DNA from: Thermoanaerobaculia bacterium
Lineage (GTDB): Bacteria; Acidobacteriota; Thermoanaerobaculia; Gp7-AA8
Reading direction: 5' to 3'
Assembly (NCBI GenBank): GCA_041748075.1
Contig: JBGTDX010000083.1
Location: forward strand, 16,383 to 80,382
DNA: 64,000 bases
Each line of letters begins with the position of its first letter. Positions within the stretch are counted from its first letter, which is position 1. The notes under the pieces are model-generated. The model was not told where the DNA came from. It saw only the letters and a program-made list of their open reading frames with translations, and made no database searches. The position numbers and the translations under genes were made by a program. This document shows, piece by piece, positions 16,124 to 31,756 of the stretch.

Positions 16124-17512
16124 ATGCAAGAGCTTCAGGAGTTTTTGAACGCGGCGTCGAGCTTCGTCTGGGGACCCTGGCTTCTGGTTCCTCTTCTTCT
16201 GTTAACGGGCCTCTACCTCACGGTCATCCTGCGGGGAATTCAATTCCGGGAGCTCGGCCGTTCGCTCTGGCTTGCCCTGGTTGTCCGAACCGAAAAGGGC
16301 GCCGACGGCGACATCAGCCACTACCAGGCGTTGATGACGGCTCTGGCAGCGACGGTGGGGACCGGAAACATCGTCGGGGTCGCGACTGCGATCGCCCTAG
16401 GGGGGCCGGGGGCACTGTTCTGGATGTGGATGACGGGGCTCGTCGGAATGGCCACCAAATACTCCGAGGCTCTGCTGTCGGTGAAGTACCGGATCACGGA
16501 TCATTCGGGCGAGCAGGCGGGCGGGCCGATGTACTACCTGCGGGATGGCATCAGGTCGAAGCCGCTCGGAGCAACTCTGGCTTTTCTGTTCGCGCTATTT
16601 GCCTCGGTTGCGGCCTTCGGGATCGGCAACATGGTGCAGTCCAATTCTGTTGCCGGTGCCCTGAACACATCCTTCGGAATCCCGACGTGGATCAGCGGGC
16701 TCGTCATTGCTCTACTGGCAGCCGCCGTGATTCTCGGAGGGATCAAGTCGATCGGGCGCTTCAATGCCCTGTTCGTCCCGGCGATGATCGTCGCCTACAT
16801 GATCGGCGCATCCGTGATCATCGCCATGAATATCAGTAGCGTTCCCGAGGCGTTCCGACTCATCTTCACGAACGCATTCACGCCGACAAGCGCCGCCGGA
16901 GGATTTCTCGGCGCCTCCGTGATGGCCGGAATCCGGTACGGTGTGGCGCGCGGTATCTTCTCGAACGAGTCCGGGCTCGGATCGGCCGGCATCGCAGCTG
17001 CTGCCGCGCGGACCCGCGAGCCGGCTCGGCAGGCATTCGTCTCGATGACGCAGACTTTCATCGACACGATCGTGGTCTGCACATTCACAGGCGTCGCGAT
17101 CATCTCGACCGGAGCCTGGACCTCGGGAGAAGGAGGGGCAGCGATCACCCAACTCGCGTTCCGCGAGGGACTTCCCGGCAACTGGGGCGGCTGGATCGTT
17201 GCCATCAGCCTCTCGATGTTTGCTTTCTCGACGATCCTCGGCTGGAGCTACTACGGCGAGAAGTCGATCGAGTATCTGCTCGGCGAACGGTCGAAACTTC
17301 CCTACCGCATCCTCTTCGTCATCGCCACGTTCTTCGGAGCGATCTACAGTCTCGATTTCGTCTGGACCCTCTCGGACCTGATGAACGGCCTCATGGCGCT
17401 GCCAAACCTGATCGGATTGCTGCTGCTCAGCGGCGTGATCGTCGCGGAGACGAAGGCGTACATAGCGCGCCGGAAGGCCGAGGAGCCGATGAACAGGAGG
17501 GGCGGTCTATGA
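16124..17512 (+). CDS. alanine/glycine:cation symporter (AGCS family)
   Basis: 462 aa polytopic protein with a [12 protein letters not shown] sodium:alanine-symporter signature. Confidence 0.85.
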
Positions 17513-17613
17513 AAGCTGCGCTAAGCCGTGTTCTTTTTTCGCTCCCCCATCGCTGGGAAGAGTGGACGATTATCGAACCGCTGTCCTGGCCCTGCTTGGG
17601 TATGCGTGGGGGG

Positions 17614-17751
17614 GGGGCGCGGTCGGGAATACCATTGAAACGAAACCCTGATTCGGGCTGTTGTGTCCCCCATCCATCGGAATGGCTTCGTTTCGCAAAT
17701 CCCATATTGAGGACCGGTTGGCTTCGTTTCGTAATCGGCCCCCCCGCACGC
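17614..17751 (+). ncRNA. candidate structured RNA element: a 12-bp G10/C7-containing closing stem encloses about 110 nt with one segment and two alternative complementary partner copies
   Basis: gcgtgggggggggg pairs with cccccccgcacgc. Inside, ccattgaaacgaaacc can pair with either of two ggcttcgtttcg copies (17688 or 17720). It sits in a 516-bp non-coding gap between convergent genes; strand and function are unknown. Confidence 0.3.
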
Positions 17752-18028
17752 ATCGCCCCGATTGCCTTCCTTTCTTCAATCCACCTTCGACCGCCCGCAG
17801 TCGGCCTGTGGGCTTCCCGCCAGGAGACAGATTCGCCTCCGTCGTCGACATGATGCGTGATGTCCATACTGATCGGTGCGGTTACCGAAGTCGCTGGATG
17901 CGCTCGATCCCGTGCAGGGTTGGCGCGATGATATTTCCATCTCTATCACCTGCGGTTTCATAGTTCGCAGTGAGTGTTGCGCCGCCGAAGCGGCGAGAGG
18001 AGAAGTCGCGATTTTTCTTGCTTCATGG

Positions 18029-20254
18029 TCAATCCGCATCCGCTCGAACGCGCCTGACCGGCACGATCTCGACGCGCGTACGCGTCGCGACCGGCCGATC
18101 AAAGAAACGGTCGATACGAGACGTTGCCAGCGCGACCTCGCGTGAAGGCTCGAGGCGGAATTCGGCATCGTACGAGCCTGTCGGGGCCGACGCTGTCAGA
18201 ATCGTGTCGGGCTGATAACTGAGTGCAGTTAAACGCACAACTCCGAAGCTTCCCGTTGAGCTGCCCGCAAAGCTTTCCCGTCGACCGATGAAGTAACGTC
18301 CGCCCCCCATTGCGAAGTCGAACACCATGTTCCCTCCTCTTTCGTCGAGGCGAAGAGACGCCGTTCCTGCGAGCGCTACGCGAGACGACAGATCAAAGGA
18401 TCCCTGGAGGAGAGCCTCGACCAGGAGCCGTTGCCCGGGCCTCGTTTCCCCGGGCAGACAGGCCGTGCGTCCGAGAGTGCCACCTTGGCTCTCCCACTCG
18501 ACCTGGAAGCACGGCGGATCTTCGGCGCGGATCTCCAACACCGCAAGTTGAACTCGATCCAGACGGAATGCAGATCCCAGGCTCGGGTAGACGGCCACTC
18601 GTTCGGGGAATGAGGAGGGGTACTCGTCGAAGAGGTGCAGCCGATGCTCTCCGAGGTCGCGAATCTCCCGGCCGATCATCTTCGCCTGATGCAGCTCAGG
18701 CCAGTTCGAGCGACCGCCGCCTTTGCGCGCCATGGCCGTGCCTTTGTTTGCCACCGACTCGGGATCGAAGGTCTCGATGGCGGCGCGCAATGCCAGGCGA
18801 TGGGGCCCGTCGCTCTCGCTTCTGGGGCCGAAAGACTCGGCCAGGTTCGTCATCGTACCGAACGCGAGTCCCGTTGAAAAGGTCGCGCCATACAACGGGA
18901 TCCAGGAACCGCCATCAAACGAACCTTGAAGCTCCGCCCAGGCGAAGAGCGGTGGCAAACCGGAAACGCAAGAGAAACTGGTGTAAAGATGAGGGGGTTC
19001 GGACGTCAAGCCGAACATAGAGACATCGGGAACGACCTGAATGGAGGCTCGGCGAACCAGCAGTCTCAGTTCTTCATCATTGTGCCGGGCGAGTCGCTTT
19101 GCAACGTCTGCCTCGAAGGCGGGCCAGTACGAATCCACGAAGGACGGGCTGACGTTACGGGCAATGGACTGATCGAGCACTTCCTTGATCCTCTCCCGTT
19201 GCCGCCGGTCCGCAGATTGTCGCTGGGCCAGTTCGAGGCCACCAGCAAGGCCAGCCAACGCCAACAACAGTGCGGTTACCGCTACAGCTTGCCGGTACCG
19301 TCGCACCCATTTATAGCTGCGCCACAGCCAGGTGATCGGACGCGCATGGATCGGCTTTCCCTGCAGGAAGAGCTCGAGATCATCAGCCAGTTCGCCCGCC
19401 GTCCGATAGCGCCTTTCTGGCTCTTTTTCGAGACAGTGAAGCACGATCGCCTCGAGATCGCGGTCGACGTCGCGGCGGAGACTCGAAAGCTTCGCGGGTT
19501 CGTCCTGCAACACCTGGCGCAGTGTGTCGATGATCGACTCTCCACGAAACGGCGGACGGCCAGCGAGTAGATCGTAGAGAAGCGCGCCGAGGGCGTAGAT
19601 GTCCACGGCGGTGGTGAGGACCCGCCCCCCAGCGGCCTGTTCGGGCGCCATATAACTCGGCGTTCCGACGATCGCATCGCTCTTGGTGAGGCTCGGCTCG
19701 TTCCCGAAGCGCCGCGCCAGTCCGAAATCCGCGACCTGGGGTTCGCCCTGAGAATCGATCAGGACGTTCGCCGGCTTCAGATCGCGGTGAACGACGCCCC
19801 GCCTGTGTGCGTAATCGACGGCCCGAGCGGTCTTCATGATGATCGTGGCCGCGCCATTCTGCTCTCGTCCCATCTCGTCGGGCCGTTCCCGGAGGCTCTT
19901 CCCGTCGATCAGCTTCATCGTGAAGTAGTGCGTTCCGTCATGTTCTCCGACCTCGTAGATGGGGACGATGTTCGGATGATCGAGTTGTGCGGCGGCTTCG
20001 GCCTCTCGCCGGAAACGACGCACAGAACCTTCAGATGCGAAATCTCCACCCAGGATGACTTTCAGCGCGACGAGGCGGTCGAGAGTGACCTGACGCGCTC
20101 TGTAGACGATCCCCATCCCGCCGCGAGCGATCTCCTCGAGAATCTCGAAGTCGCCGAAGTAACGGAGTTGCGATCCCGCCTCAAGACCCTTCTTCTCCGG
20201 GTCGCGGTCGGGGCCTCCTGAGATGGTCGACTCGAAGGATGAATCGGGACTCAT
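18029..20254 (-). CDS. Ser/Thr protein kinase with a C-terminal domain of about 450 aa of unknown function
   Basis: Hanks kinase subdomains: GGMGIVYRARQ, VALKVI, HRDLKPANVLID, DFGLAR, GTPSYMAPE. Confidence 0.85.
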   Translation of the reverse strand: MSPDSSFESTISGGPDRDPEKKGLEAGSQLRYFGDFEILEEIARGGMGIVYRARQVTLDRLVALKVILGGDFASEGSVRRFRREAEAAAQLDHPNIVPIYEVGEHDGTHYFTMKLIDGKSLRERPDEMGREQNGAATIIMKTARAVDYAHRRGVVHRDLKPANVLIDSQGEPQVADFGLARRFGNEPSLTKSDAIVGTPSYMAPEQAAGGRVLTTAVDIYALGALLYDLLAGRPPFRGESIIDTLRQVLQDEPAKLSSLRRDVDRDLEAIVLHCLEKEPERRYRTAGELADDLELFLQGKPIHARPITWLWRSYKWVRRYRQAVAVTALLLALAGLAGGLELAQRQSADRRQRERIKEVLDQSIARNVSPSFVDSYWPAFEADVAKRLARHNDEELRLLVRRASIQVVPDVSMFGLTSEPPHLYTSFSCVSGLPPLFAWAELQGSFDGGSWIPLYGATFSTGLAFGTMTNLAESFGPRSESDGPHRLALRAAIETFDPESVANKGTAMARKGGGRSNWPELHQAKMIGREIRDLGEHRLHLFDEYPSSFPERVAVYPSLGSAFRLDRVQLAVLEIRAEDPPCFQVEWESQGGTLGRTACLPGETRPGQRLLVEALLQGSFDLSSRVALAGTASLRLDERGGNMVFDFAMGGGRYFIGRRESFAGSSTGSFGVVRLTALSYQPDTILTASAPTGSYDAEFRLEPSREVALATSRIDRFFDRPVATRTRVEIVPVRRVRADAD

Positions 20255-20339
20255 GCCTGACCCCCTCGCCGCAGCCTGGAACGATCAGTCATCCCATGAC
20301 GCTGCACGGAATCAGTATCGTGCAGGGACCCTCCCGAAG

Positions 20340-20499
20340 CATGAGAGGTTTATGAGATTTTTGTGTGCCCGCTGTTTCGTCGATAGACCAGGTACTCGAT
20401 CCCGCCCTGATCGCGAGCGAAGGATGGCCCAATTCCAGCCACGGGCCGTTCCTTCCTGGTCCGCGCCGTTCCTCGCGTCAATTTGATGAACAGTACCTT
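20340..20499 (-). pseudogene. remnant of a gene 3' end homologous to the C-terminal tail of the kinase at 23496..26708
   Basis: The minus-strand translation ...RPVAGIGPSFARDQGGIEYLVYRRNSGHTKIS* parallels RPGWSWTWLGVSHPELARDEGRIEYMTYRRNSGSQ... The nucleotide similarity continues through the spacer into the next start codon. Confidence 0.4.
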
Positions 20500-23484
20500 T
20501 TACGAGTTCGGTGCTGGTTTGACCAAAGTAATCGTTTCCTCGGTGGAGACTTCGTTGGCGGTGCTGGAAGATCTGTCCAAGGTTTGAAATAGCGTGCCCA
20601 TCTGACTGAGGTCGCGGAGGACTTCGTTTCCATTGCGGAGTCGCCGGTCGAGGCTGGGGTCGATCATTCGCTCGATCAACGACGTGAGCTGCGAAGGAAT
20701 ACGCGCGTCGGGCACTTCCGGTCTGGTGGAAAGAATCTCCAGAGCCAGATTGGTCGAATCGTGTGATTTCCAGGGGCGACGTCCCGTGAATATCTCGCTT
20801 AGCACGATTCCGAACGACCAGACGTCCGCGCGAGAGTCGACCGACTCGCCTCGCAACTGCTCCGGCGAAATGTACGGCAAGGATCCGAGCACCCGCTGCT
20901 GCGACGTGATTGATGTCGTCCCCGCCGAACGTGCGATCCCGAAGTCAAGAAGAACGGTCCGGCCGGATCGGGTGAGCATGACATTCGAGCTCTTCACATC
21001 GCGATGAACTACGCCGGCCTGGTGAAGTGCGGCGAGCGCAGAAGCGACTTCCAGGGCCACCTGGTACGCTGTGAGTTGATTCCAGGATGACCGCCGGATC
21101 GACTCCGCCAGCGTGTCACCTTCGAGCAACTCCATGGCCAGATAGATGCGACCGTCATGCTCACCGCGCTCGAGGAGGCGCACGACATTCGGGTGGGCTA
21201 ACGAAGAGATCACCGCTCCTTCCCGTTCGAGGCGTTTGCGCGCTTCCTCTTTTTCGATCTCCAGCTCGGGAAGAAGCTTGATTGCCGCGAAGGAGTCGTC
21301 GTGAACGTTGACTGCGCGAAAGACTTCGCCCATGCCCCCGGATCCGATCTTCTCCATCAATTCGTAGGCGCCAATCCTCTGCTTCAGCCCATCGGCCAGA
21401 CCTCGAAGCGGGCGTCTGACGTCAGGGAGGGCCAGAAACCTCGTGTCGCCGACTTCGAATCGTTCATTGCGGAGGACGATCGTCGACCGATCGAGCAGAC
21501 GCTGCACGCCGACGCCGATCTGGATTTCCGAGGTTTTGATGCCCGCGTCAAGAAACATTTGCTTCAACCCTTCGATCAGCGCTTCCTTCGAGTCGAGCTG
21601 AGCTGTCGTCAGGCGAGTGATCCCGGCGAAAATGAGACGACTGTGGCGATCGAGCATTCGCCAGTCTGACTCCGCCACGCGAAGTGTACGCAACCTCTGA
21701 TTCTCGATTCCCACAGAGAGCTGACGCGCAACGTCGAGGAGAAATTCTTCATCTCGAGCATCGAACTCCTCGTCGGAGAGTTTCCAGCCGATTCCGATGA
21801 GGGCAACGAGCTCTCCGGTCACTCGGACGGGAACAATCAGACTCGCCTGCGTTCGTTGAATCGTGGCGCTGTCCTCGTCGCTGAGACCTCCGCCGGAGGC
21901 CCGAAGGATCGAGGAGAGATCGGCCAGGGAGCTCGTGGAGCTGATGGTCGTGTCTCGCACGTCAACGTCCACGAGCCCGGCCTGAGCCGCCACGTGGAAG
22001 AAGGGCATGAAGGGCTCACGGCTGAAGATCACGATGGATCGAGCTCGCAACGTATCGCAAAGATGGAGGGCGACGCTGTGAAAGAGCACGTCCGTCGTCG
22101 ATGCCTTGAGGATCTCTTCGCTGACCACTCGTAGCGCTTCAGCGTGTTGATAGGGCTCGCGGAAGAATCTCTGATCGACGACCCGTTGAATCCTGTTCTT
22201 CAGGGGGACGAAGATCCCGGCGATTGCCAGCGTGGAGACAATGGTTACTGTCTGGTTCTGCAGGCCCGATGAGGCCACGAACAACCGTCCCAGAACAGCC
22301 ACGAGCCCGACGTAAAGGAGGATCAATATGACACTCAGCGCGGAATACGCGATCGTCTTCTTGATGAGTCTGTCGATTCCGAGCAGGTTGCGTTTCAGGA
22401 TGGCGAAGGCAAAGGTAATCGGAATGATCATCAGACCTCGAGGATCGATTCCGAATTGGATTTCGTTCATTCCTTCTTCTTCGCTGATTCGAAGATTCAT
22501 GACCGTCGGAAGCAACACGGAGACAATGATTCCAACGATGATTCCCCAGACTGGCCAACGGATCTGGCGTTTCTCCTCCAGACTCGATTGGCGATAGGCC
22601 TTGATGAGATTGACGGGGGCCAGAATGAAATAGGCGATCCCCGAAAGGATGAAGCCTACGAGGCCGACCAGCGCGGGCGTCGGCATGTCAGTCCCCATCG
22701 CATCGATCGTGCCGAAAAAGAGCAAGGCGAACGCCGCGGGGAGGAGGTACAGCGCCGGCTTGAGTGCCGGCTTTCTCTCCACCAGCGGCCGCGGACGGGG
22801 GAAGATCAGACTGAGGTGCAGCGTCATGGCCGGGATGAAAACCAGGATGGATAACACCGAGAAGAGCATCAACACGACGAGAAGAGGATCCTTTACTGCG
22901 TTAGCGACAAGCCTCTCCGCAGCGGGAGACAAAGCGAGAATTCCGAGAAATCCGCACAACCAGTGGAACAGACGTGCGCGCGCATCACCTAGTTTTCGAT
23001 AGTGCACCAGAGTCCCCAGCCCGAGGAGGAATGCGGCCATGAGCGACCCGGAGATGAGCGAGATGATGAAGAAGCGCGAGTCGATGAGCCGTCGCGGAGT
23101 CACCGTGACCTCGCGTTCTCCCGTGATCTCGGCCTTTCCGCGCTTCTGTTCGACGCGGCCGAAAACATAGCGCCGCGGCTCGCCCGTGAATAGCCTCGTT
23201 GCACCGGCCTTGCCCGGCGAACGATGATCGATCTGGAGAAGAAGCTCGCCACTGCGCACTCCGGCGTCGTCGGCGGGACTATGCTTGTCGACGTCGATCC
23301 ACACCGACTGATCACCCTCCGGTTCCTGGCGGAAACGGATTCCGTCCCAGGCAGACCGGTAGAGAATCGTGACGGCGATCGACAGCGTGGCAATTGCCAG
23401 GACGCCGAGGACACCACTGGCGATGAGAAACGCTCGAAGTTCTGTGGCCATTGATCCCTGACTTGGAGATTCGATCGGAACCAT
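20500..23484 (-). CDS. membrane sensor Ser/Thr kinase: N-terminal TM, periplasmic PDZ-like segment, about 8 TM helices, GAF-like domain, C-terminal Hanks kinase
   Basis: The kinase motifs are at the C-terminus (GSGGMGEVFRAVN, HRDVKSSNVMLT, DFGIARS). The N-terminal two-thirds is polytopic. Confidence 0.8.
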   Translation of the reverse strand: MVPIESPSQGSMATELRAFLIASGVLGVLAIATLSIAVTILYRSAWDGIRFRQEPEGDQSVWIDVDKHSPADDAGVRSGELLLQIDHRSPGKAGATRLFTGEPRRYVFGRVEQKRGKAEITGEREVTVTPRRLIDSRFFIISLISGSLMAAFLLGLGTLVHYRKLGDARARLFHWLCGFLGILALSPAAERLVANAVKDPLLVVLMLFSVLSILVFIPAMTLHLSLIFPRPRPLVERKPALKPALYLLPAAFALLFFGTIDAMGTDMPTPALVGLVGFILSGIAYFILAPVNLIKAYRQSSLEEKRQIRWPVWGIIVGIIVSVLLPTVMNLRISEEEGMNEIQFGIDPRGLMIIPITFAFAILKRNLLGIDRLIKKTIAYSALSVILILLYVGLVAVLGRLFVASSGLQNQTVTIVSTLAIAGIFVPLKNRIQRVVDQRFFREPYQHAEALRVVSEEILKASTTDVLFHSVALHLCDTLRARSIVIFSREPFMPFFHVAAQAGLVDVDVRDTTISSTSSLADLSSILRASGGGLSDEDSATIQRTQASLIVPVRVTGELVALIGIGWKLSDEEFDARDEEFLLDVARQLSVGIENQRLRTLRVAESDWRMLDRHSRLIFAGITRLTTAQLDSKEALIEGLKQMFLDAGIKTSEIQIGVGVQRLLDRSTIVLRNERFEVGDTRFLALPDVRRPLRGLADGLKQRIGAYELMEKIGSGGMGEVFRAVNVHDDSFAAIKLLPELEIEKEEARKRLEREGAVISSLAHPNVVRLLERGEHDGRIYLAMELLEGDTLAESIRRSSWNQLTAYQVALEVASALAALHQAGVVHRDVKSSNVMLTRSGRTVLLDFGIARSAGTTSITSQQRVLGSLPYISPEQLRGESVDSRADVWSFGIVLSEIFTGRRPWKSHDSTNLALEILSTRPEVPDARIPSQLTSLIERMIDPSLDRRLRNGNEVLRDLSQMGTLFQTLDRSSSTANEVSTEETITLVKPAPNS

Positions 23485-23495
23485 TTCTTCCCAGC

Positions 23496-26400
23496 CTAGT
23501 CCTTGCGAAACTGTACCTCGACGAGTCTGATTTCGCGCTGACTCCCGCTGTTTCGTCGATACGTCATGTATTCGATCCGGCCCTCGTCGCGAGCGAGCTC
23601 AGGATGGCTCACTCCCAGCCACGTCCAGCTCCATCCTGGTCTGGAGGGCAAGGTGTCGATCTCGATCACCGCTTCCGACCACGGGCCCTCCGGACGGTCG
23701 GCGAGACGAATCTGGATTCGCTCGTCGAGAACCCGGCTTCCGACGGCCATGAATTTGCCGAGGAATGCATTCCAATGGACGCTGAAAATCCCCCGCTGAA
23801 TTCCTGCACTGAGAACCGGCTGCGCGTCCTTCCAGTCGCTGCTCCAGCGTCCGTGTGCCCCAAGAAACCGCCACGCAGAGCGGTCAAGGGCCGCGGCAAG
23901 GGGGACGCGCGCCAGTCGGCACGAAGCCTCGAGGCCGCGAGGCTCGCAGGCGTATGCGTACATCTGATCGCCGACGACCAGCGCCGCCGCTCCCCACGCC
24001 GGTTCATCCGGTCCGAAGAGCAGCGTTGGGGTATCCGTTTCCGGGCGAACCGCCGGCCGATCGCCCGTGAGACTCCCCCGGGTCCAGACGGCCAGAGACG
24101 TCCCGACGGACTCGTCGTCTCGCGGCGGCTGCCTCAGCATTCGACGGTAGAAGACGAGAAGGCGATCTCGCTCGCCGTCCGCGACGACCGCTGCGGGCGC
24201 GAGAATCCACCCCACCCCGCACGGCTCAACGCAGTTCGCGCCACTGTGCGCTGCGTTGAAGGCCGCTTCCTCCTTTGTCAACGGCAATAGCTCGCTCGGC
24301 ACGCCTGTTCCATCCTTCAACTCGTCGAGGACGTCGAGGCCCTTCCTGGCATCCAGCTTGTCCGTCCAGGCAAGAGTCGCTTGTCTCGAAGTCGAGCCCT
24401 TCCTCCCCGAACGTGTCGTTGTCGTCTCCCCGAAGACCCAGACGGACTCTCCGCCGAGACGCGCGCTGTAGCCTCCCTCGCGATCGACTACGGTCTCGTC
24501 GAAGTCGAGCGGTCCCATGTCGCGCGCCTCCTCGACGAAGATCACCGGCAGAAGAGCCTGCGTGCGGGCGGCGGCTTGGGGACGCCTCCAGGACCGATAG
24601 AGACTCGCGAGTCTGACGAGCGCCTGCTGCGTCGAGGCGTTGTTTCCGCCACGCTCTGTTTCCAGCACCGGGATCGCCTCCAGGAGCAGCGTCTCGGCCT
24701 CCCCGAACCGCTCGCGGGCGGTCAGGAACGCGCCGAGGTCTGACCGAAGCCTGGCCGCACGCGCGGATCGCTCCAGTCCAACTTCTCCCAGAAGGCTCAA
24801 TGCTTCGCGGAGGACCGGCTCCGCCGCGGCGTCGCCGACTTGCAGCAAGCGAGCACCGTTGCGCTCGAGAATCGTGGCCAGCGACCGCTGCGTTTCGAGC
24901 AGACTCGGCGCCCCCGGCGGGAGTACTCTTCTACGCCGCGCCAACGAGGCGCGGTAGACCGACTCGAGAGCCTCGTCATTCGCGTCGGCCGGCCGCAGCG
25001 ACTTGGCCTCGAGCCGCTCAACCAGACGCTCCATGAGCTCGATCATGTGCTCGTCCGCGCTGGCGATCTTCCCGCGCATCTGCGCCAGGATCCGCCGTCG
25101 CAACGCGTCAGCCTCTTCCGGGGCCAGCAGCTCCGTCATCAGGACGGCCGCATGGACTGCGTCGGGGTCGCCCCGATCGAGCGCCCGATCGACGAGCGTC
25201 AAACCCTCACGCATCAACTTCTCCCGCCCCTCATATTCGCTGCTCGAGGAGAAGAAGCCGTAACGAAACAACTCGAGCAGGAAGAGTCGGTTCACCGCAT
25301 ACGAGGCGAGGCCAGGACTCCCCTCTCCGAGCAGCGAATTGTGCAGATCCATCGCCTCGCCGGATAGCTTCACATAACGGCTGCGGTCTCCGAGCAGCGC
25401 CGCCTGCACCGACTGAGCCTCCAACGCGTTGCGAGCGGCCTCCGACTCGGCGCGTTGCTGCGCAGCTTCAGACCGAAAGTACAGGGAGGTGATCACCACG
25501 GCACCAGCGAGAAGGATGACCAACAACCCGGCCGCGGCCGCGAACGCAGCGCGATGCTTCCGGACGAGTTTCTTCAATCGATAGGAGCGACTCGGCGGGC
25601 CGGCCAGGACAGCTTCGTCGGCAAGGTGTCGTCTTGCATCGGCAGCCAGCTCGGATGCGGATTGGTACCTTCGGTCCGGATCCTTTTCCATCGCGCGCAG
25701 CGTGATCCACTCCAGTTCCCCGCGAAGCTGCCGGGCCAGAGAGCGGATGTCCGTGTGCCGCCGCCGCGCGATCTCCGGTGCTGAGTCCCCGAGACTGCCG
25801 AACTTCGTCGTCGGCCTCGGCGGCTCCTCCTCCTGGATGATGCGGAGCATCTCCACCGCCGCGGCCCGCCGAAGGGTGGCCGGATCGAAAGGAAGGGCGC
25901 CAACGAGAAGCTCGTAGAGCAGGACTCCAAGAGAGTAGATGTCGGTCCGGGCGTCGACGTCGAGCGCCGTCGTTCCCGCCTGCTCCGGACTCATGTACTC
26001 GGGGGTGCCCATCATGACACCCTGCTTGGTGAACAACGTCTGCTCGGTCAGTGTCTGGCCGGTTGCCGTGGCCAGCCCGAAGTCGATGACTTTCGGAACC
26101 GGGGTTCCATCGTCCGAGGACACCAGGACGTTCGACGGCTTGACGTCCCGGTGGATGACGCCTTTCTGATGGGCATGCTGAATTGCGTCGCAAACCTTCG
26201 TAAATAGAGCCAGCCTTTCTCGAAGTGGAAGACATCGCAAGTCGCAGTACTCGGTGATCCGGATGCCGGGCACGTACTCCATGACGAAGTACGGCCGTCC
26301 CTGATCCGTGGCGCCTGCGTCGAAGACTTTGGCCACGTTGGGGTGGTTCATGACGGCGAGAGCCTGACGCTCGGCAGCGAAGCGGGCCAGCACTTCGCGG

Positions 26401-26708
26401 GTGTCCATGCCCGGCTTGATCACTTTGAGTGCCACACGGCGGCGGATCGGCTCGATCTGCTCGGCGAGGTACACGATGCCCATTCCGCCCTGGCCAAGGA
26501 TCTGGAGGATCCGATAGTTGCCGACGTGAGTGGGGTGGTCAGTTGAAAGAAGTTGCGATTCTGCGGGAGCTCCCCCGGTAATGGTGGACTCGCCCTCTCC
26601 CTCATTGGGCGCGAGCTCCAGATTCTGCAGGCATTTCGGACAGAGTCCGTTCGCGATCTCCTTCGGAAGGGCGTCACCACAGTCGGGGCATCTTGGATCG
26701 GAGTTCAT
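23496..26708 (-). CDS. Ser/Thr protein kinase with an N-terminal zinc ribbon, a TM helix, a TPR-like helical region and a C-terminal beta-rich domain (DUF4185-like guess)
   Basis: CPDCGDALP...CPKCL zinc ribbon; GQGGMGIVYLAEQ, HRDVKPSNVLV, DFGLA. It lies 12 bp upstream of the next kinase. Confidence 0.85.
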   Translation of the reverse strand: MNSDPRCPDCGDALPKEIANGLCPKCLQNLELAPNEGEGESTITGGAPAESQLLSTDHPTHVGNYRILQILGQGGMGIVYLAEQIEPIRRRVALKVIKPGMDTREVLARFAAERQALAVMNHPNVAKVFDAGATDQGRPYFVMEYVPGIRITEYCDLRCLPLRERLALFTKVCDAIQHAHQKGVIHRDVKPSNVLVSSDDGTPVPKVIDFGLATATGQTLTEQTLFTKQGVMMGTPEYMSPEQAGTTALDVDARTDIYSLGVLLYELLVGALPFDPATLRRAAAVEMLRIIQEEEPPRPTTKFGSLGDSAPEIARRRHTDIRSLARQLRGELEWITLRAMEKDPDRRYQSASELAADARRHLADEAVLAGPPSRSYRLKKLVRKHRAAFAAAAGLLVILLAGAVVITSLYFRSEAAQQRAESEAARNALEAQSVQAALLGDRSRYVKLSGEAMDLHNSLLGEGSPGLASYAVNRLFLLELFRYGFFSSSSEYEGREKLMREGLTLVDRALDRGDPDAVHAAVLMTELLAPEEADALRRRILAQMRGKIASADEHMIELMERLVERLEAKSLRPADANDEALESVYRASLARRRRVLPPGAPSLLETQRSLATILERNGARLLQVGDAAAEPVLREALSLLGEVGLERSARAARLRSDLGAFLTARERFGEAETLLLEAIPVLETERGGNNASTQQALVRLASLYRSWRRPQAAARTQALLPVIFVEEARDMGPLDFDETVVDREGGYSARLGGESVWVFGETTTTRSGRKGSTSRQATLAWTDKLDARKGLDVLDELKDGTGVPSELLPLTKEEAAFNAAHSGANCVEPCGVGWILAPAAVVADGERDRLLVFYRRMLRQPPRDDESVGTSLAVWTRGSLTGDRPAVRPETDTPTLLFGPDEPAWGAAALVVGDQMYAYACEPRGLEASCRLARVPLAAALDRSAWRFLGAHGRWSSDWKDAQPVLSAGIQRGIFSVHWNAFLGKFMAVGSRVLDERIQIRLADRPEGPWSEAVIEIDTLPSRPGWSWTWLGVSHPELARDEGRIEYMTYRRNSGSQREIRLVEVQFRKD

Positions 26709-26796
26709 AAGGTCCCTCCCTCACCCTCTTCTAAAGAGACGCGAGAACGACGAAGTTCTCTAGTCATTGATTCCTGATCTGGAACTCGGTGTGAAA

Positions 26797-28629
26797 TCAT
26801 TTTAGGAACCTCGGAAGCGCCAATGTCAAGAAGGGAACATAGGTAATTGCCAGTACGCCGAGAAGTAGCACAAAGACAAACGGCAAGACCGCCAGCGCCA
26901 GCTCGCCTAACGGTTTGTTGAAGCGATAGGCCGAGATGAACAGATTCTCTCCAACCGGTGGCACGAGGAACCCGAGCTCGAGGTTCGCCAGGAAGATGAT
27001 CCCCAGGTGAATTGGGTCGATTCCGAAGGCGACTCCGAGCGGCAGGATCAGCGGGACGACGACGACGATGGCCGAATAGACATCCATCAATGCACCGACG
27101 ACGATCAGAAAGAGATTGAGCAGAAGCAGGAAGACAAGCTTCGATTCGATGTTCGCTGTCACCCACTCGACCGCGAGCTGGGGGATCTCTGCGTCGACCA
27201 GGTATCCCGTCAGGCCGAGCGAGACACCGAGGATGAGGAGAATGCCACCGACGAGAAGCCCCGAGTCGACGAAAACCGAGGTGAGCTTTGACGGACTGCG
27301 ATAGTCCCGATAGATCACCGTTTCGATGAAGAGTGCGTAGAGAGCAGTGACGGCTGCGGTCTCGACCGCGGTGGCAAGCCCTGTGAGCAGCGGCGCCAGA
27401 GCGACAACCGGGAGAAAAAGCTCCCATTTCGCTGCCCAGACTGCGCGAGCCGCGTCACCTGCGTTGAATCGCACATCATTGCTACCCCGCGGCTGCTGCG
27501 AACGGCCTAACCATCCGCTGAGCACCAGAAGCAGAAAGCCCGGTACTATCCCGGCGAGAAAGAGCTGGCTCATCTCCAGACCGGCGGCGATTCCATAGAG
27601 AATGAGGGGGAGACAGGGAGGGAAGAGGATCCCGAGCGCGCCGGCGCCGGTCAGTAGTCCAAGCGCAACGCGCTCGGAGTAACGCGCCTCGAGGAGAATC
27701 GGCAGGAGCAGACCCCCCAGAGCCAGGATCGTTACGCCCGACCCTCCGGTGAACGTCGTGAAGAACGCACACGCGAGCACGGTGACGATGGCCGGCCCGC
27801 CACGAACTCCCCCGACGAGCGTACGGAACACTCTCACAAGCCGCCCTGACGCGCCTCCTTCGGCCAGGATGTACCCGGCGAGAGTGAACAGCGGGATCGC
27901 CGGCAGCGAGGGGTTGACCACCAGAGAGTAGTGGCTCACCGCCATCGCGGCGAGCGGAATCTGCGCAGACCAGTAGGAGACGATCGCCGCTCCCCCGAGG
28001 ACGGCGAAGATGGGCGCGCCGAGAACCGCTGCGGCGAAGACCACGGCGAATCCGGCGAGGATCATGGAGTGACTCGAGATCTCGCCCTGGCTGACGAGAA
28101 GCATGACAAGCGTTGCCGCGCTCGTGATGAGCCGGGAAGACCACTGGTTGGATGCTGCCATGATGAGCCGCAACGCGATCAACCCGAAACCGATCGGAAG
28201 GATCGCCTGAATCACCCAGGTGGGCACTCCGTAGGCGAGCGTTCTCTCGTCCAGACGTTCGGTGAGAACGAATCGAGCGCTGGCGATGGCCAGTAGAGCG
28301 CTCACCGCCGCGCCAATCGAGCCGGCGACGATCCTGGCGACAGCAGCCCAGCGACCGTGCAGCAGGCTGCTCGTGGCCAGACTCAGGAGACGCCGCTCCC
28401 GCGCGGCGATCGCAGCGCCGATCATGCCGACGGCGAGCGTGCAGTGCTGCACGATCACACTCGCCCCGGAGACTCCCGTTCCGCGCAGCTTTCGCAGCAC
28501 GATCTCCGCGATCGGAACGGCGATCATCAGGAGCAACACGATGAGGAGGAGCCCGTTCTCGAGTTGCTCGAGCGGTCGAGTCTTCCTCGAGCGCACCTCG
28601 ACCATCGGGGAAAAAGCCAACTCGCTCAT
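26797..28629 (-). CDS. TRAP transporter fused small/large permease (DctQ-DctM fusion)
   Basis: 610 aa; an N-terminal DctQ-like four-TM module followed by a DctM-like 12-TM module. Confidence 0.85.
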   Translation of the reverse strand: MSELAFSPMVEVRSRKTRPLEQLENGLLLIVLLLMIAVPIAEIVLRKLRGTGVSGASVIVQHCTLAVGMIGAAIAARERRLLSLATSSLLHGRWAAVARIVAGSIGAAVSALLAIASARFVLTERLDERTLAYGVPTWVIQAILPIGFGLIALRLIMAASNQWSSRLITSAATLVMLLVSQGEISSHSMILAGFAVVFAAAVLGAPIFAVLGGAAIVSYWSAQIPLAAMAVSHYSLVVNPSLPAIPLFTLAGYILAEGGASGRLVRVFRTLVGGVRGGPAIVTVLACAFFTTFTGGSGVTILALGGLLLPILLEARYSERVALGLLTGAGALGILFPPCLPLILYGIAAGLEMSQLFLAGIVPGFLLLVLSGWLGRSQQPRGSNDVRFNAGDAARAVWAAKWELFLPVVALAPLLTGLATAVETAAVTALYALFIETVIYRDYRSPSKLTSVFVDSGLLVGGILLILGVSLGLTGYLVDAEIPQLAVEWVTANIESKLVFLLLLNLFLIVVGALMDVYSAIVVVVPLILPLGVAFGIDPIHLGIIFLANLELGFLVPPVGENLFISAYRFNKPLGELALAVLPFVFVLLLGVLAITYVPFLTLALPRFLK

Positions 28630-29675
28630 TTTGGCTCCGCGGCCTTCGGAGATGCGATCGGGCGGCGATATTCACTGAGAAGCCGTTTGACCTCGTCGAA
28701 GAGATCCACAGGCACGATCCGTCCGCGAATCATCGGATAGCTCTGTTCGGCCGCGCGCTGCCACTCGGCTTCGAACTGCGGGGGGACTTTGTGAACGCGG
28801 AGATCGCGCTTTTTCATCGCTTCGACCGCCTGGTCGCTTTCCAGTCGATTGCGCGCTTTCATCGTCCTTCCGGCATCCGCCGCGGCAGTCGCCAGCGCCT
28901 TTTGAGTTGCGGGTGGAAAGGTGTTCCATGCCGTTTCCGTGATCACGAAAGCGCCGACCAGCGGCGCCCAGTTGAGCTCCAGCATGTGCGGAGCCTGTTT
29001 GAACACCTGCGTGGCCAGGGCTACGTAGGGCGGCAAAGGAACGGCGTCGATCATTCCCATCTGCAGAGAAGGAAGAATGTCAGTGGTCTCGAGAGGAACC
29101 GGCCGGAACCCTGCAGCCTTGTAGATGTCAGTTGCCTCGACGTCACCCGCCCAGGTAAAGAGCTTGGTTCGCTTCAGGTCGTCAGGACGCAGGATCTCGC
29201 TCTTGGAGAAGAAACGCACCCACCCGGCATCTGCCCAGAAGAGAACGACGAACCCCTTGTCCCGGAGGCGTCGCTCCAGCCTCGGACGCAGTTTCTCGCC
29301 GATGAAATCGACCTCTTCGAGGGAGCGGAACATCATGGGCATGCTTTGCAGAGCTTCGACAGAGTCGTCGATCTCGGAGAGGCCGACCACGGTCAGTAGG
29401 CCGGCGTCGAGAGCGCCGTTTTTCATTCTCCGCACCATCTCCGCCTCTCCGCCCAGAGTTCCCCCGGGATAGATCTTCAGTACGACGTCATGCTTCTGCC
29501 ACTTCTGACCCATCTCGACGAGGATCTTGTCGAACGACGAATCTTTCGGCGCTACGGTGCCGAGCTTGATCCTCGCGGGCTTGTGGGCCGGCGTCTGCTT
29601 TGCTGACAGCGACATCGTGAACAACAGGGCAGCGGCTACTGACGATAGGGTGATTCGAAGTGATTTGCGCATCAT
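28626..29675 (-). CDS. TRAP transporter periplasmic solute-binding protein (DctP family)
   Basis: Signal peptide plus a DctP-like fold; 4-bp overlaps on both sides mark an operon. Confidence 0.8.
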   Translation of the reverse strand: MMRKSLRITLSSVAAALLFTMSLSAKQTPAHKPARIKLGTVAPKDSSFDKILVEMGQKWQKHDVVLKIYPGGTLGGEAEMVRRMKNGALDAGLLTVVGLSEIDDSVEALQSMPMMFRSLEEVDFIGEKLRPRLERRLRDKGFVVLFWADAGWVRFFSKSEILRPDDLKRTKLFTWAGDVEATDIYKAAGFRPVPLETTDILPSLQMGMIDAVPLPPYVALATQVFKQAPHMLELNWAPLVGAFVITETAWNTFPPATQKALATAAADAGRTMKARNRLESDQAVEAMKKRDLRVHKVPPQFEAEWQRAAEQSYPMIRGRIVPVDLFDEVKRLLSEYRRPIASPKAAEPK

Positions 29676-30616
29676 TCATCTCCGGTAGCTGAGTCGAGAA
29701 ACAGTTCGTCTGCACGTGAAAGAAGCCATCGCGCTCGCCGCTGGGCCAGGACGTTTTCGAGACGCCATTCAGGTCGGGCATTGGTGTCGACGGCGAGAGC
29801 GCGATTCAGCAACTCTTCGAACTCGCCGCGGTTTTGAGAAGGCAATGCGAAGATCTCGGCGGCTGACACGAAGGGTGAGGCCAACTTGCCTTGCGATAGC
29901 TGAACGGCACGATCGAAATGCGTCCGAGCGTTGACTGAGGCGTCGCGCGAGAGCGGGCCCTGCGCCGCGTCATAGCTCATCAGGAAGGAATCGATGGATC
30001 CCTCTCCAAATCCGGGCTCGAGCTCGGCAGCGCGGTCGATCATGGCCTTGGTGATGGGGAGATCGGCCAGCATCTCCAGGTCATCCATGCTGCGCGCGAT
30101 GGCCAGCCCCCATGAGGCGGCGGCCCAGTAGAGCGCGGGGACATCATTCTTGTTCGTGCGGGCCAGGGCCGAGGCGGGGTTAGCCATGAGTCGCTTTTCG
30201 AAGTCCTCACCGAGGGCGCGCAGGGCGTACTTGCGCGCGCGAAGATAGAGCCGCTTGGCGCGCTCGCGCTCGGCCGCGGCCGCCGCTGGATCGACCTCCT
30301 CCAGTTCGTCGGATGTCTGGTCGACCCAACCATAGCTGTACTGCATGAATCCTCGCGCCGCGGCCACGAGGAGTGGGCGATGATTCGGTGATTGCTCAAG
30401 GAGACTCTCGATCAGCTTCAGCGTGAAGGGGAGCGCCTGGCCGACCAGATCAGGATCGTCGTCGGCGGTGAAGGTTGATCCACCGCCGGCAATGACGTTC
30501 CCCACCTCGTTGACCGCGAGCGTTCGGAGCGAGCATCCGCCCGCGAACGACAACGAAAGAAGCAGCGCGAGAGTCCGGGCCAGAGTTCTATCTTCGAGTT
30601 TCCGCCAGTTCTGCAT
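29672..30616 (-). CDS. TatT-like TPR lipoprotein (T component of TPR-protein-associated TRAP transporters)
   Basis: Lipoprotein signal (LSFAGGCS). The helical TPR-like body resembles TatT. The start at 30616 (ATGCAG) has a strong AGGAGG RBS. First gene of the tatT-dctP-dctQM operon. Confidence 0.6.
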   Translation of the reverse strand: MQNWRKLEDRTLARTLALLLSLSFAGGCSLRTLAVNEVGNVIAGGGSTFTADDDPDLVGQALPFTLKLIESLLEQSPNHRPLLVAAARGFMQYSYGWVDQTSDELEEVDPAAAAAERERAKRLYLRARKYALRALGEDFEKRLMANPASALARTNKNDVPALYWAAASWGLAIARSMDDLEMLADLPITKAMIDRAAELEPGFGEGSIDSFLMSYDAAQGPLSRDASVNARTHFDRAVQLSQGKLASPFVSAAEIFALPSQNRGEFEELLNRALAVDTNARPEWRLENVLAQRRARWLLSRADELFLDSATGDE

Positions 30617-30704
30617 ACAATCCTCCTCGAACCAAGATAAGCATCGGTTGGCGGGCATTCGAAGTCTTGGAGGAATCCTTGTGTTTTCATGACTTCCGAG
30701 CGGC

Positions 30705-31358: not shown

Positions 31359-31372
31359 ATCCCTGGAGAATT

Positions 31373-31756
31373 TCATCTCTCCGGAGTGTCCTGCGGCCGA
31401 TCCTCACTCCGCTCCTCATGACGTCTGGAGTCCTCACCAGGAGTGTCCTCCTCGACGAGCGTCAACAAAAGGCGAGACGGAACCTGCTCCCACATCGCAC
31501 CGGTGAGTGCATCCAGGCCCACTCCCACTGCCGTGAAGAGCCCGAGGACCAGCCCGTCCTTTAGCGACTCCGCCTTCTCCATGAGCACGAAATTGTCATC
31601 CACCGAATCGGAGGTCACACGGGTGAGAGTCACCGTCTGGTCCGCGTAGCCCGGAAACGACAGAGTCAAGCTGCAGCGGGTGGCACGACGGCTGACCCAG
31701 ACCGTAGCGGGAGTTCGCAGGCGAGCGGCTCGCCATCCACCGCAATCCGGCGCCAC
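31373..31756 (-). CDS. hypothetical membrane protein (possible PEGA-like segment plus one TM)
   Basis: ORF only; weak. Confidence 0.3.
   Translation of the reverse strand: MAPDCGGWRAARLRTPATVWVSRRATRCSLTLSFPGYADQTVTLTRVTSDSVDDNFVLMEKAESLKDGLVLGLFTAVGVGLDALTGAMWEQVPSRLLLTLVEEDTPGEDSRRHEERSEDRPQDTPER

Follow-up and report, generated by a model that had tools for sequence, protein, structure and literature searches.

Bacterial Hanks kinases are usually regarded as pleiotropic, and to our knowledge neither the signal nor the specific substrate is known for most of them. As a precedent, PknH phosphorylates EmbR, an OmpR-like regulator that contains an FHA domain, and the FHA-mediated phosphorylation changes DNA binding; PknB recruits GarA via activation-loop phosphothreonine (PMC6213207). 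A long signalling helix between the sensor and the catalytic output is standard for histidine kinases, PP2C phosphatases, cyclases and GGDEF proteins, and such helices were reported to be absent upstream of Ser/Thr kinases (Anantharaman, Balaji and Aravind 2006, PMC1592074). Here we describe a sensor Ser/Thr kinase and its neighbouring genes in a 64,000-nucleotide stretch of Thermoanaerobaculia DNA, which is referred to as the window.

Overall architecture of the sensor kinase

From the N- to the C-terminus, the protein comprised a TM helix, a PDZ-like domain outside the membrane, nine further TM helices, a GAF domain, a long helix, a winged-helix-like adaptor and a Hanks kinase domain (Table 1). 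The first-pass annotation had placed a Ser/Thr kinase at the C-terminus behind a membrane sensor, and this arrangement was borne out by the Pfam Pkinase match, the intact motifs and the full-length ORF. As it had also stated, most bacterial Hanks kinases are built the other way around; the kinase domain was N-terminal in 74 of 91 related bacterial kinases, internal in 12 and C-terminal in five, and it was N-terminal in all three of the other kinases encoded within the window. Translation probably starts at M12 (position 23451), because P0002 and P0003 begin at the equivalent of M12 and the upstream ATG in context L001 is out of frame; this start would give a protein of 983 aa, matching the NCBI entry P0001.

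The query formed a clade with P0002, P0028, P0029 and P0110, whose members were 30-39% identical overall and had in common the sensor, a linker found in no other relatives and a kinase domain of high conservation. As rearrangement scars are present at the locus, an assembly or gene-calling error might be suspected of having fused two separate genes into one ORF. We consider this extremely improbable, since independent contigs (NCBI, JGI and Logan samples) encode the identical complete architecture and the junction is bridged by a conserved linker. The gene is genuine, and the receptor it encodes is of a rare bacterial type: a ten-helix sensor that is usual on protein phosphatases or histidine kinases is attached to a Ser/Thr kinase.

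Table 1. Positions of the sensor-kinase features and neighbouring genes in the window.
Feature	Residues	Position	Strand	Basis or remark
Sensor Ser/Thr kinase ORF		20500..23484	(-)	994 codons, uninterrupted
TM1, N-terminus inside	18-41	23362..23433	(-)	Hydropathy, loop charges, model helix 9-43
Outside (periplasmic) PDZ-like domain, degenerate	~44-130	23095..23355	(-)	Sub-cutoff PDZ_6, beta-rich model, relatives
Nine-helix TM bundle and juxtamembrane helix	137-440	22165..23076	(-)	Hydropathy, alignments, model, loop charges
Motif LHxxLxFP	222-229			Cytoplasmic face
Motif YRxSxxEEKRQxRWPxWG	296-313			Cytoplasmic face; family consensus SYRxSxxEEKRQxRWPLWG
Motif AILKxxLxxID	361-371			Cytoplasmic face; family consensus AILKYRLMDID
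Motif PxKNRxQxxVDxRFFR	427-442			Cytoplasmic face; family consensus PxRNRxQxxVDRRFFR
Cytoplasmic GAF domain	~443-595	21700..22158	(-)	Pfam and Foldseek
Post-GAF helix, C-terminal part	596-624	21613..21699	(-)	Invariant W608, L611, D612, R616
Clade-specific winged-helix-like adaptor	627-702	21379..21606	(-)	Models, fold matches, linker profile
Hanks-type Ser/Thr kinase domain	707-949	20638..21366	(-)	Pfam Pkinase, E 2.4e-49
K736 codon	736	21277-21279	(-)	
Catalytic D829 codon	829	20998-21000	(-)	
Invariant activation-loop T860 codon	860	20905-20907	(-)	
C-terminal tail with T-[IL]-T motif	960-994	20503..20607	(-)	Motif in 4/5 clade members
Kinase B, N-terminal Pkinase, 741 aa		18029..20254	(-)	Downstream of the sensor kinase
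Remnant of kinase C 3' end (23544-23641)		20368..20461	(-)	~82% identity; shortly after the sensor-kinase stop codon
Kinase C: Zn-ribbon-like leader, N-terminal Pkinase, TPR, DUF4185		23496..26708	(-)	Upstream of the sensor kinase
Remnant of sensor-kinase 5' end (23435-23486)		26751..26802	(-)	71% identity; overlaps the DctQM stop codon (ATGA)
TAtT-DctP-DctQM TRAP (TPAT-type) operon		26797..30616	(-)	Pfam; upstream, same strand as the kinase, divergent from the FHA gene
FHA + Trans_reg_C (OmpR-type wHTH) regulator, 217 aa		30705..31358	(+)	Pfam Trans_reg_C 25-98, FHA 132-194

Structure of the input module

Hydropathy analysis revealed ten TM segments, one N-terminal and nine further on, in place of the approximately eight helices annotated initially. 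The AlphaFold2 model, which spans residues 1-720 (mean pLDDT 87, pTM 0.66), contained the same helices together with a beta-rich domain at residues 49-128 and a GAF fold. The short loops carried 20 Lys and Arg residues on the inside versus 4 on the outside, which supports a topology with both termini inside and residues 42-136 outside.

The periplasmic segment had been annotated as PDZ-like. It was beta-rich in the model and is placed outside by the predicted topology, and the provisional PDZ-like assignment comes from homology: in 46 of the 53 top relatives, the homologous segment scored above the cutoff of Pfam PDZ models. The query itself, however, scored 23.7 bits against a PDZ_6 cutoff of 27, with a match covering residues 64-89 only, and residues 86-103, the expected place of the second PDZ helix (α2), were irregular in the AlphaFold2 model. 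A sensing role of this domain is doubtful because it is degenerate here and absent from the clade members P0028 and P0110.

The TM bundle region contained four conserved motifs, all of which face the cytoplasm and align with the consensus of an unnamed PDZ-TM-GAF input-module family, to which the query belongs. The Pfam model HisKA_7TM (PF16927) did not match the query at E < 0.1. In the clade member P0029, this model was passed marginally over the TM region (29.1 bits vs 28.6), and it matched one of the 53 best sensor relatives, which points to a distant relationship and not to membership. The annotated GAF domain was recovered as well, as PF01590 scored 27.7 bits (cutoff 22.4), a GAF_3 match at residues 467-595 fell just under its cutoff, and Foldseek superposed the modelled fold on the solved GAF domains 3ci6, 3trc and 3oov with TM-scores of 0.70-0.75 and rmsd values of 3.0-3.5 Å.

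The linker and the kinase domain

In the AlphaFold2 model, the GAF domain ran into a helix of 49 residues (576-624), which is followed by the adaptor. The linker of approximately 100 aa between the GAF and kinase domains was absent from every PP2C and histidine-kinase relative, and its profile matched clade members only. It had no Pfam match, and a comparison of the profile with PDB sequences returned nothing significant, the best hits being Vps36 and histone H1 (E 0.35-0.6). The adaptor was modelled at a pLDDT of 88.7 and a pTM of 0.83, with G648, R662, L663, D688, R691, P692, L693 and A697 invariant within the clade. Its best fold matches were winged-helix proteins throughout, yet at E >= 0.15, so that winged-helix-like is a statistically weak assignment drawn from the model. 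We also considered a degenerate PAS domain, as MAFFT had aligned the linker opposite the PAS of histidine-kinase relatives; this idea was rejected given the lack of a Pfam match, the confident helix plus helix/beta-hairpin fold and the fold matches to winged-helix proteins instead of PAS.

The C-terminal domain showed the hallmarks of a Hanks kinase, namely the G-loop GSGGMG at 714, AAIK with K736, HRDVKSSN at 827-834 with D829, DFG at 847 and SPE at 873, and its closest solved structures were the kinase domains of Stk1, StkP and PknB. The catalytic Lys and Asp, on whose presence the first-pass annotation had made its kinase assignment depend, were thus both in place. Across the clade, the activation loop followed the pattern [ST][ST][IL]T, with T860 invariant, and the T-[IL]-T motif of the C-terminal tail is a candidate phosphothreonine docking site. 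The PASTA kinase model NF033483 scored 232 bits, well short of its cutoff of 450, in a match restricted to the kinase domain, and the protein contained no PASTA domain. Neither HisKA/DHp nor HATPase_c was detected in the query with Pfam and NCBIfam, so the protein is not a sensor histidine kinase. As judged from these residues, it is most likely an active polytopic receptor Ser/Thr kinase. That the domain might be a pseudokinase or scaffold, signalling without phosphotransfer, was suggested solely by its C-terminal position, which is unusual in bacteria, and by nothing more specific; with every catalytic motif present and invariant over a clade of just 30-39% identity, we find this very improbable.

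Relatives of the sensor and origin of the fusion

At E <= 1e-3, the sensor had 16,014 representative relatives; the number fell to roughly 5,800 at E <= 1e-10 and to 115 at E <= 1e-30. Among the best 149 relatives of an exhaustive search, the output was PP2C/SpoIIE in 115, a histidine kinase in nine and a Ser/Thr kinase in five, the other 20 being fragments or other proteins. Pfam identified SpoIIE in 50, PDZ in 46 and GAF in 43 of the top 53 relatives, and phmmer E-values to PP2C members were as low as 1e-67. Cyclase and GGDEF outputs were also seen on related sensors.

The first-pass annotation had proposed that a sensor histidine kinase exchanged its HisKA/HATPase transmitter for a Ser/Thr kinase, and it had suggested a search for homologues with the same sensor on HisKA/HATPase. 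Such homologues were found, with 21-27% identity and coverage up to 87%; the HisKA_7TM score of P0029 and a weak match of the PrsK histidine-kinase model to PP2C relatives over the TM and GAF regions point in the same direction. However, PP2C phosphatases were nearest by a wide margin, and histidine-kinase forms first appeared at rank 95 of the sensor relatives. In a crude neighbour-joining tree, the kinase forms made up basal branches of the PP2C clade, and the histidine-kinase forms were more remote. With the linker folding as a helix and a winged-helix-like domain, the failed PAS-remnant idea lends no help either, and we judge descent from a histidine kinase improbable. What stands of the shuffling idea is a modular sensor, also used by histidine kinases, joined to a C-terminal Hanks kinase; replacement of a histidine-kinase transmitter is not supported by the output counts (115/149 PP2C versus 9/149 histidine kinases). 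Nor was it a simple swap, as the clade has its own conserved adaptor of ~100 aa that is missing from PP2C and histidine-kinase relatives.

Ser/Thr kinase fusions of this sensor were rare (5/149 best relatives) and arose at least twice; P0109 and P0133 are independently fused kinases. The fusion in the query's clade is old, because its members are only 30-39% identical. A recent capture of the kinase from a neighbouring gene was rejected, as the domain shared just 30-36% identity with the window's other kinases and the clade kinases were far more conserved. A scan of a genome collection for clade members returned 80 loci, all of which matched the kinase N-lobe only, through a generic G-loop pattern. 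When the clade alignment was used in a word-indexed profile search, P0001-P0003 and then generic kinases were recovered; this search is not a census because P0028, P0029 and P0110 were missed.

Gene neighbourhood and the candidate regulator

The sensor kinase lies between two further kinase genes, B and C (Table 1), and the stop codon of kinase C is 11 nt ahead of the first ATG of the sensor ORF. The transporter operon further upstream is of the TPAT type, encoding TAtT (E 8.6e-76), DctP at 28626..29675 (E 1.1e-36) and DctQ and DctM in one 610-aa protein, and the TAtT lipoprotein is likely to start at 30616. The operon was adjacent in the window and in L083/L084, and L001 retained remnants of its ends. 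Scanned for promoters and terminators, the region 17500-31500 showed no signal above shuffled controls.

Divergent from this operon, and separated from it by 88 bp (30617-30704), we found a gene for an FHA-wHTH regulator, the proposed cognate partner of the sensor kinase. Its FHA domain has all of the phosphothreonine-binding residues R135, S149, H152 and N171. No bacterial transcriptional activation domain (BTAD) was detected in the regulator, and its 217 aa leave no room for one; it is outside the EmbR/SARP-type family, though by analogy it would work like EmbR. Five clade contexts, mostly short metagenomic contigs, were available in all, and an FHA + Trans_reg_C gene was present near the sensor kinase in four of them (the window, L001, L085 and L083/L084), 0-3 genes away; the homologue in L001, which adjoins the sensor kinase, was 84% identical. 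The association appears specific to the query's clade because the independently fused P0109 and P0133 had no FHA neighbour. More generally, the contexts of these two proteins and of the best PP2C relative, P0030, gave no hint of a partner for the sensor module itself.

Whether the two genes form a dedicated pair can be weighed from the same contexts. The sensor kinase might instead act on other substrates while the regulator serves kinases with N-terminal kinase domains, namely B and C, which flank the sensor kinase in the window, and the STK-TPR of L083, the clustering then being a Ser/Thr signalling island. Consistent with this, homologues of the regulator adjoin kinases of unrelated architectures, the FHA gene of L083 directly adjoins a co-oriented STK-TPR gene, and L086 has an STK-TPR neighbour with no FHA gene within the available sequence. 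On the other hand, in L085 and L001 no kinase other than the sensor kinase adjoins the FHA gene (divergent spacing of 50 bp and 384 bp), the linkage has outlasted large rearrangements of the locus, and P0109 and P0133 lack it. We therefore regard a non-dedicated partner as unlikely and favour a dedicated pair.

The wider FHA-wHTH family yielded 1,780 matches, and both domains were present in 120/120 among the matches listed. Three further regulator homologues each adjoin a Hanks kinase with another domain architecture, as expected of a kinase-dedicated regulator family. Because the family is large and a Hanks kinase was the neighbour in every one of the handful of contexts examined, PknH/EmbR-type kinase-regulator pairs may commonly serve as regulatory units in Acidobacteriota.

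Proposed mechanism

Building on the domain anatomy, the topology, the catalytic and phosphothreonine-binding residues, the family distribution and the conserved gene linkage, we propose with moderate confidence that the sensor module drives the Hanks kinase, and that the system parallels PknH/EmbR, acting as a Ser/Thr counterpart of two-component signalling that controls the TRAP operon. The input would be formed by the outside PDZ-like domain, the nine-helix bundle with its conserved cytoplasmic loops and the cytoplasmic GAF domain. A signal, perceived either in the envelope or membrane or in the GAF pocket, would alter how the post-GAF helices pack in a putative dimer, and the adaptor would relay this change to the kinase domains, leading to trans-autophosphorylation on the activation loop, predicted at T856-T860. 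The activation-loop phosphothreonines would then draw in the neighbouring regulator through its FHA domain, and the regulator, once phosphorylated, may alter transcription from the divergent TAtT-DctP-DctQM promoter; the transcript of this operon would also carry the kinase genes.

A broader version of this proposal, which we offer tentatively as a possibility on the doubtful side, is an undescribed, self-contained Ser/Thr counterpart of two-component signalling. It would run from a polytopic sensor through the adaptor and the Hanks kinase to an OmpR-type regulator with an FHA domain in place of a receiver, and on to the TRAP operon, with PP2C paralogues carrying the same sensor as matched erasers in a push-pull response to one signal. 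If this is true, the adaptor would answer the question of how coupling is achieved, which is raised by the reported lack of signalling helices upstream of Ser/Thr kinases.

In this clade, the input module of the kinase is defined, and both a candidate substrate, the FHA-wHTH regulator, and a candidate target, the TRAP operon, are linked to its gene; signal-to-output specificity would thus become directly testable. In addition, one input module is joined to both a writer (kinase) and an eraser (PP2C) of Ser/Thr phosphorylation, and in this clade the coupling to a kinase is accompanied by an extra adaptor domain.

Comparison with described systems

The M. tuberculosis PknH/EmbR system is similar in combining a membrane Hanks kinase with a regulator that has an OmpR-type winged helix and an FHA domain, a pairing suggested here by the genes. 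In contrast, PknH has its kinase domain at the N-terminus, crosses the membrane once and ends in an extracellular sensor, whereas here the order is reversed, the TM helices number ten and a GAF domain is present; EmbR also has a bacterial transcriptional activation domain, while the regulator of this locus consists of the wHTH and FHA domains only.

The nearest relatives of the sensor, the uncharacterised PDZ - multi-TM - GAF - SpoIIE/PP2C phosphatases, which no curated NCBIfam model names at cutoff, have an input module that is homologous throughout, with up to 36% identity across the PDZ segment, the TM bundle with its cytoplasmic motifs and the GAF domain. They differ in that the phosphatase comes straight after the GAF helix, without the winged-helix-like adaptor and without a kinase. 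The HisKA_7TM (PF16927) and PrsK (TIGR02916) histidine kinases have a related multi-pass TM sensor and a GAF domain, but are more distant relatives, and the query lacks HisKA and HATPase.

Among C-terminal kinases, we also found P0208, which combines Pkinase with CHASE2 (PF05226); the CHASE2 sensor family is also used by other output types. Such CHASE2-type receptor Ser/Thr kinases likewise place a membrane sensor N-terminal to a C-terminal Hanks kinase, but their sensor has an unrelated fold, and they lack both a GAF domain and a winged-helix-like adaptor. Finally, the query resembles proteins wired through signalling helices, as its sensor is followed by a long helix (576-624, as modelled) directed toward the catalytic output; it differs from them in having a Hanks kinase downstream of that helix and an extra adaptor domain in between.

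Domain organization and topology of the sensor kinase

The Pfam search revealed a Pkinase domain at residues 707-949 of the sensor kinase (E 2.4e-49), behind the transmembrane (TM) helices and a GAF domain, as the first-pass annotation had proposed. All of the Hanks catalytic motifs were found (GSGGMG at 714, AAIK with K736, HRDVKSSN with D829, DFG at 847 and SPE at 873), and the catalytic Lys and Asp are thus in place. A pseudokinase was excluded, as the catalytic residues are present and conserved across the clade of kinase fusions described below. The nearest solved structures to the catalytic part were the kinase domains of Stk1, StkP and PknB. A PASTA kinase identity was rejected, as the score of 232 bits is below the cutoff of 450 and only the kinase domain matched.

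Hydropathy analysis revealed one N-terminal TM helix, a hydrophilic segment of about 95 residues and nine more TM helices, giving ten in total rather than the approximately eight first proposed. Because the short loops hold 20 Lys and Arg residues on the cytoplasmic side vs 4 outside, the topology is fixed as N-in, C-in: residues 42-136 face outward, and the GAF and kinase domains are cytoplasmic. The first ATG, originally taken as the start, is probably upstream of the true one, M12 (coordinate 23451), because this is where the two close homologues start, and in L001, the locus of the 81% identical homologue P0002, the upstream ATG is in another frame.

Features of the minus-strand gene string and the divergent regulator gene
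Feature	Coordinates	Strand	Description
Sensor kinase ORF	20500..23484	-	994 codons without interruption
TAtT-DctP-DctQM, TPAT-type TRAP transporter	26797..30616	-	highest-coordinate unit of the minus-strand gene string
Kinase C	23496..26708	-	Ser/Thr kinase with TPR and DUF4185 domains; between TRAP genes and sensor kinase
Kinase B	18029..20254	-	next after sensor kinase toward lower coordinates
FHA-wHTH regulator, 217 aa	30705..31358	+	divergent; OmpR-type Trans_reg_C at 25-98, FHA at 132-194

An AlphaFold2 model of residues 1-720 (79 aligned relatives; mean pLDDT 87, pTM 0.66) placed a β-rich domain (49-128), the TM bundle and the GAF domain in order after TM1, followed by a 49-residue helix (576-624) and a small domain (627-702) of helices and a β-hairpin. 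The GAF assignment was borne out: PF01590 scored 27.7 bits against a cutoff of 22.4, GAF_3 spanned 467-595 slightly below its cutoff, and the GAF domain was the only part of this model to find partners in the PDB, scoring TM 0.70-0.75 against isolated GAF domains. CodY (GAF, long helix, wHTH) was also among the fold matches. The proposed PDZ-like periplasmic segment is degenerate. It lies outside, is β-rich, and 46 of the top 53 relatives match PDZ; in the sensor kinase itself, PDZ_6 matched only partially (64-89, 23.7 bits against a cutoff of 27), and residues 86-103, the expected second PDZ helix, are irregular in the model.

Family and outputs of the input module

In a word-indexed search, residues 1-648 matched histidine kinases, a PP2C phosphatase, an adenylate cyclase and stand-alone proteins of about 400 aa, all with the same sensor. 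An exhaustive phmmer search of residues 1-700 against 1.84 billion representatives returned 16,014 matches at E <= 1e-3, an upper bound for the sensor family since GAF-alone matches may contribute, with 5,795 at E <= 1e-10 and 115 at E <= 1e-30. The C-terminal outputs among the best 149 were SpoIIE/PP2C (115), HisKA+HATPase (9), Pkinase (5) and fragments or others (20), and Pfam on the top 53 relatives gave 50 SpoIIE, 46 PDZ, 43 GAF, 2 Pkinase and 1 HisKA_7TM. Judged from these counts, the canonical architecture of the family is PDZ, multi-TM, GAF and PP2C.

The TM region of the family is essentially without a Pfam model; P0029, a kinase-output relative, passes HisKA_7TM marginally, and the PrsK histidine-kinase model gave a weak, sub-threshold match to the TM and GAF part of PP2C relatives. 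Family-conserved residues (LHxxLxFP, SYRxSxxEEKRQxRWPLWG, AILKYRLMDID and PxRNRxQxxVDRRFFR) lie almost all on the cytoplasmic face of the bundle and may thus form a conserved interface with the domains in the cytoplasm.

Domain shuffling in which a Ser/Thr kinase replaced a histidine-kinase transmitter had been proposed from the sequence. Homologues with the same sensor on HisKA/HATPase do exist, and modular shuffling is supported. The replacement itself is disfavoured by the 115 vs 9 distribution of outputs and by a crude neighbour-joining tree of the sensor core, indicative only and without support values, in which the kinase-output proteins group near the base of the large PP2C clade and the histidine-kinase forms are more distant. 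The sensor is most closely related to that of PP2C phosphatases, and the fusion brings an adaptor domain of its own.

The kinase fusion clade and its linker

The best two non-self phmmer matches, P0028 and P0029, carry a kinase, as does P0110. These three, the query and P0002 make up a clade with a common sensor, a linker of about 100 residues and a strongly conserved kinase (e.g. GGMGEVFRAVNVHDGSFAA), at an overall identity of only 30-39%. The architecture recurs on independent contigs, which excludes an artefact. Since P0028 and P0110 are without TM1 and the PDZ-like domain, the core of the clade's sensor is the TM bundle and GAF domain.

The linker has no Pfam match, and among all proteins fetched its profile matches clade members only. 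It has invariant positions at W608, L611, D612, R616, G648, R662, L663, D688, R691, P692, L693 and A697. Modelled alone (pLDDT 88.7, pTM 0.83), its top fold matches were all winged-helix proteins (SlyA, RTP, ORC, Fur, IclR and Sso10a), none of them significant (E >= 0.15, TM about 0.45-0.54); the adaptor domain (627-702) is possibly winged-helix-like.

In place of this linker, P0109 and P0133 have a Cys-rich, zinc-ribbon-like leader ahead of a more distant kinase domain, and are independent fusions. Kinase fusion to this sensor is rare, old and of more than one origin. Beyond the query's own entry (P0001), P0002 and the 68% identical P0003, no close relatives emerged from a word-indexed search of 5.8 billion proteins. 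Recent capture of the kinase from a neighbouring gene was rejected, as identity to the window's other kinases is only 30-36%. The statement that bacterial Hanks kinases are mostly N-terminal held: of 91 related bacterial kinases, 74 have the domain at the N-terminus, 12 internally and 5 at the C-terminus, including a CHASE2-kinase fusion. From this sample, the reversed order is uncommon, not unique.

A similar Cys-rich motif directly precedes the kinase domain in kinase C (CPDCG..CPKC), P0109 (CPLCGVCYD..C..C) and the P0133 linker; kinases of this bacterial group may use it repeatedly as a leader module. The gene for P0133 (PDZ-TM-kinase; JGI 3300041965, genes 6112-9958) comes immediately after one for an ECF sigma factor (Sigma70_ECF), which hints at a different output route for this fusion.

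Genomic neighbourhood and the FHA-wHTH regulator

Counted from the kinase C stop, the sensor kinase begins after 11 nt, or after 44 nt should translation start at M12. The divergent regulator has the canonical phosphothreonine-binding residues R135, S149, H152 and N171. An FHA-wHTH gene is likewise divergent at 384 bp from P0002, with a product 84% identical to the window's regulator, and at 50 bp from P0028 (locus L085), and lies in a divergent operon about 3.3 kb from P0029 (L083/L084), where TAtT-DctP-DctQM is downstream of the sensor kinase in one operon. The only neighbour shown for P0110 (L086) is a divergent STK-TPR gene, and the contig stops directly after the gene. An FHA-wHTH neighbour is absent at P0109 and P0133, and the window holds no PP2C gene or other FHA domain.

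The chief alternative to a pairing with the sensor kinase is that the regulator acts for the N-terminal-kinase STKs nearby. The L083/L084 context agrees with this, as do FHA-wHTH homologues adjoining kinases of differing architecture: three further members (about 215 aa; L087, L088/L089 and L090) adjoin an 895-aa kinase, a kinase-FGE-sulfatase fusion and a 363-aa soluble kinase. However, no kinase other than the sensor kinase adjoins the regulator gene in L085 or L001. The FHA-wHTH family gave 1,780 matches, with both domains in 120 of the 120 listed and named members from Thermoanaerobaculia. The window's source is probably an Acidobacteriota bacterium related to Thermoanaerobaculia. Such genes of about 215 aa are abundant in Thermoanaerobaculia-like metagenome bins with a Hanks kinase alongside in every context examined, as if kinase and regulator were generally paired.

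Hanks kinases are numerous in the window, with three in tandem on one strand (18029-26708) and a fourth at 54497-57223 (908 aa, N-terminal kinase and PD40 β-propeller repeats), whose domain is the window's closest to the sensor kinase (36% identity). The longest TAtT ORF (29672-30850, TTG start 30850) overlaps the regulator gene by about 145 nt; the ATG at 30616 is the more plausible start, because a lipoprotein-type signal peptide (MQNWRK...LSFAGGC) begins there. Candidate operator elements in the resulting 88-bp divergent region (30617-30704) are an inverted repeat, CCAAGA-N27-TCTTGG, and a pair of TCGAA motifs.

Repeats and rearrangements

Two direct-repeat pairs were found in the window, 20368-20461 vs 23544-23641 and 23435-23486 vs 26751-26802. 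The former is a copy of about 94 nt (about 82% identity) of the kinase C 3' end just past the sensor-kinase stop (translating ..ARDQGGIEYLVYRRNSG..), and 26751-26802 repeats 52 nt of the sensor-kinase 5' end (71% identity) and overlaps the stop codon of DctQM (ATGA). Both the kinase C and sensor-kinase units are bracketed by these two short sequences, an arrangement that resembles the scar of a duplication or insertion with later deletions.

Comparison of L001 1-1224 with window 26751-31351 revealed that this 82-84% identical relative lacks some 3.6 kb of the TRAP operon and retains only the TAtT start and the final 180 nt or so of DctQM. L001 is without kinase C, and the DctQM end passes straight into the sensor-kinase start; this suggests either an earlier arrangement of DctQM then sensor kinase, or precise removal of kinase C by recombination between the 52-nt repeats. 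Upstream of P0003 (L002 1-364), a kinase C-like gene has its first 15 or so codons (MSSDPRCADCG..) fused to its last 60 or so, an internal deletion; the start of L002 resembles a sequencing adapter (..AGATGTGTATAAGAGACAG).

Proposed mechanism and comparison with known systems

We propose that the input module would control kinase activity via the post-GAF helix and the adaptor domain. Signalling (S-) helices are reported to be absent ahead of Ser/Thr kinases (PMC1592074), and the clade-specific adaptor may enable coupling of helix 576-624, a candidate S-helix, to the kinase. Because clade members can dispense with the outside PDZ-like domain, which is degenerate here, more likely inputs are the membrane bundle, the GAF pocket or TRAP transporter cross-talk. 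The kinase would then autophosphorylate its activation loop, which in clade kinases has the conserved pattern [ST][ST][IL]T with T860 invariant; the phosphothreonines would recruit the regulator's FHA domain, and the regulator, once phosphorylated, would alter transcription from the divergent TRAP and kinase promoter. The variable C-terminal tail (residues 960-994; 20503-20607) keeps T-[IL]-T (ETITLV, EALTLT, DAPTLT) in four of the five clade members and could be a second phosphothreonine docking site.

The sensor-kinase architecture with conserved linkage to the regulator and TRAP operon was not found in the literature searched or in curated family libraries. The parts of the locus are all of known kinds, and the pairing of a kinase with an FHA regulator has precedent: PknH/EmbR and PknB/GarA are known systems that we took as models for the mechanism, and they form the basis of the analogy for the sensor kinase and its FHA regulator (PMC6213207).
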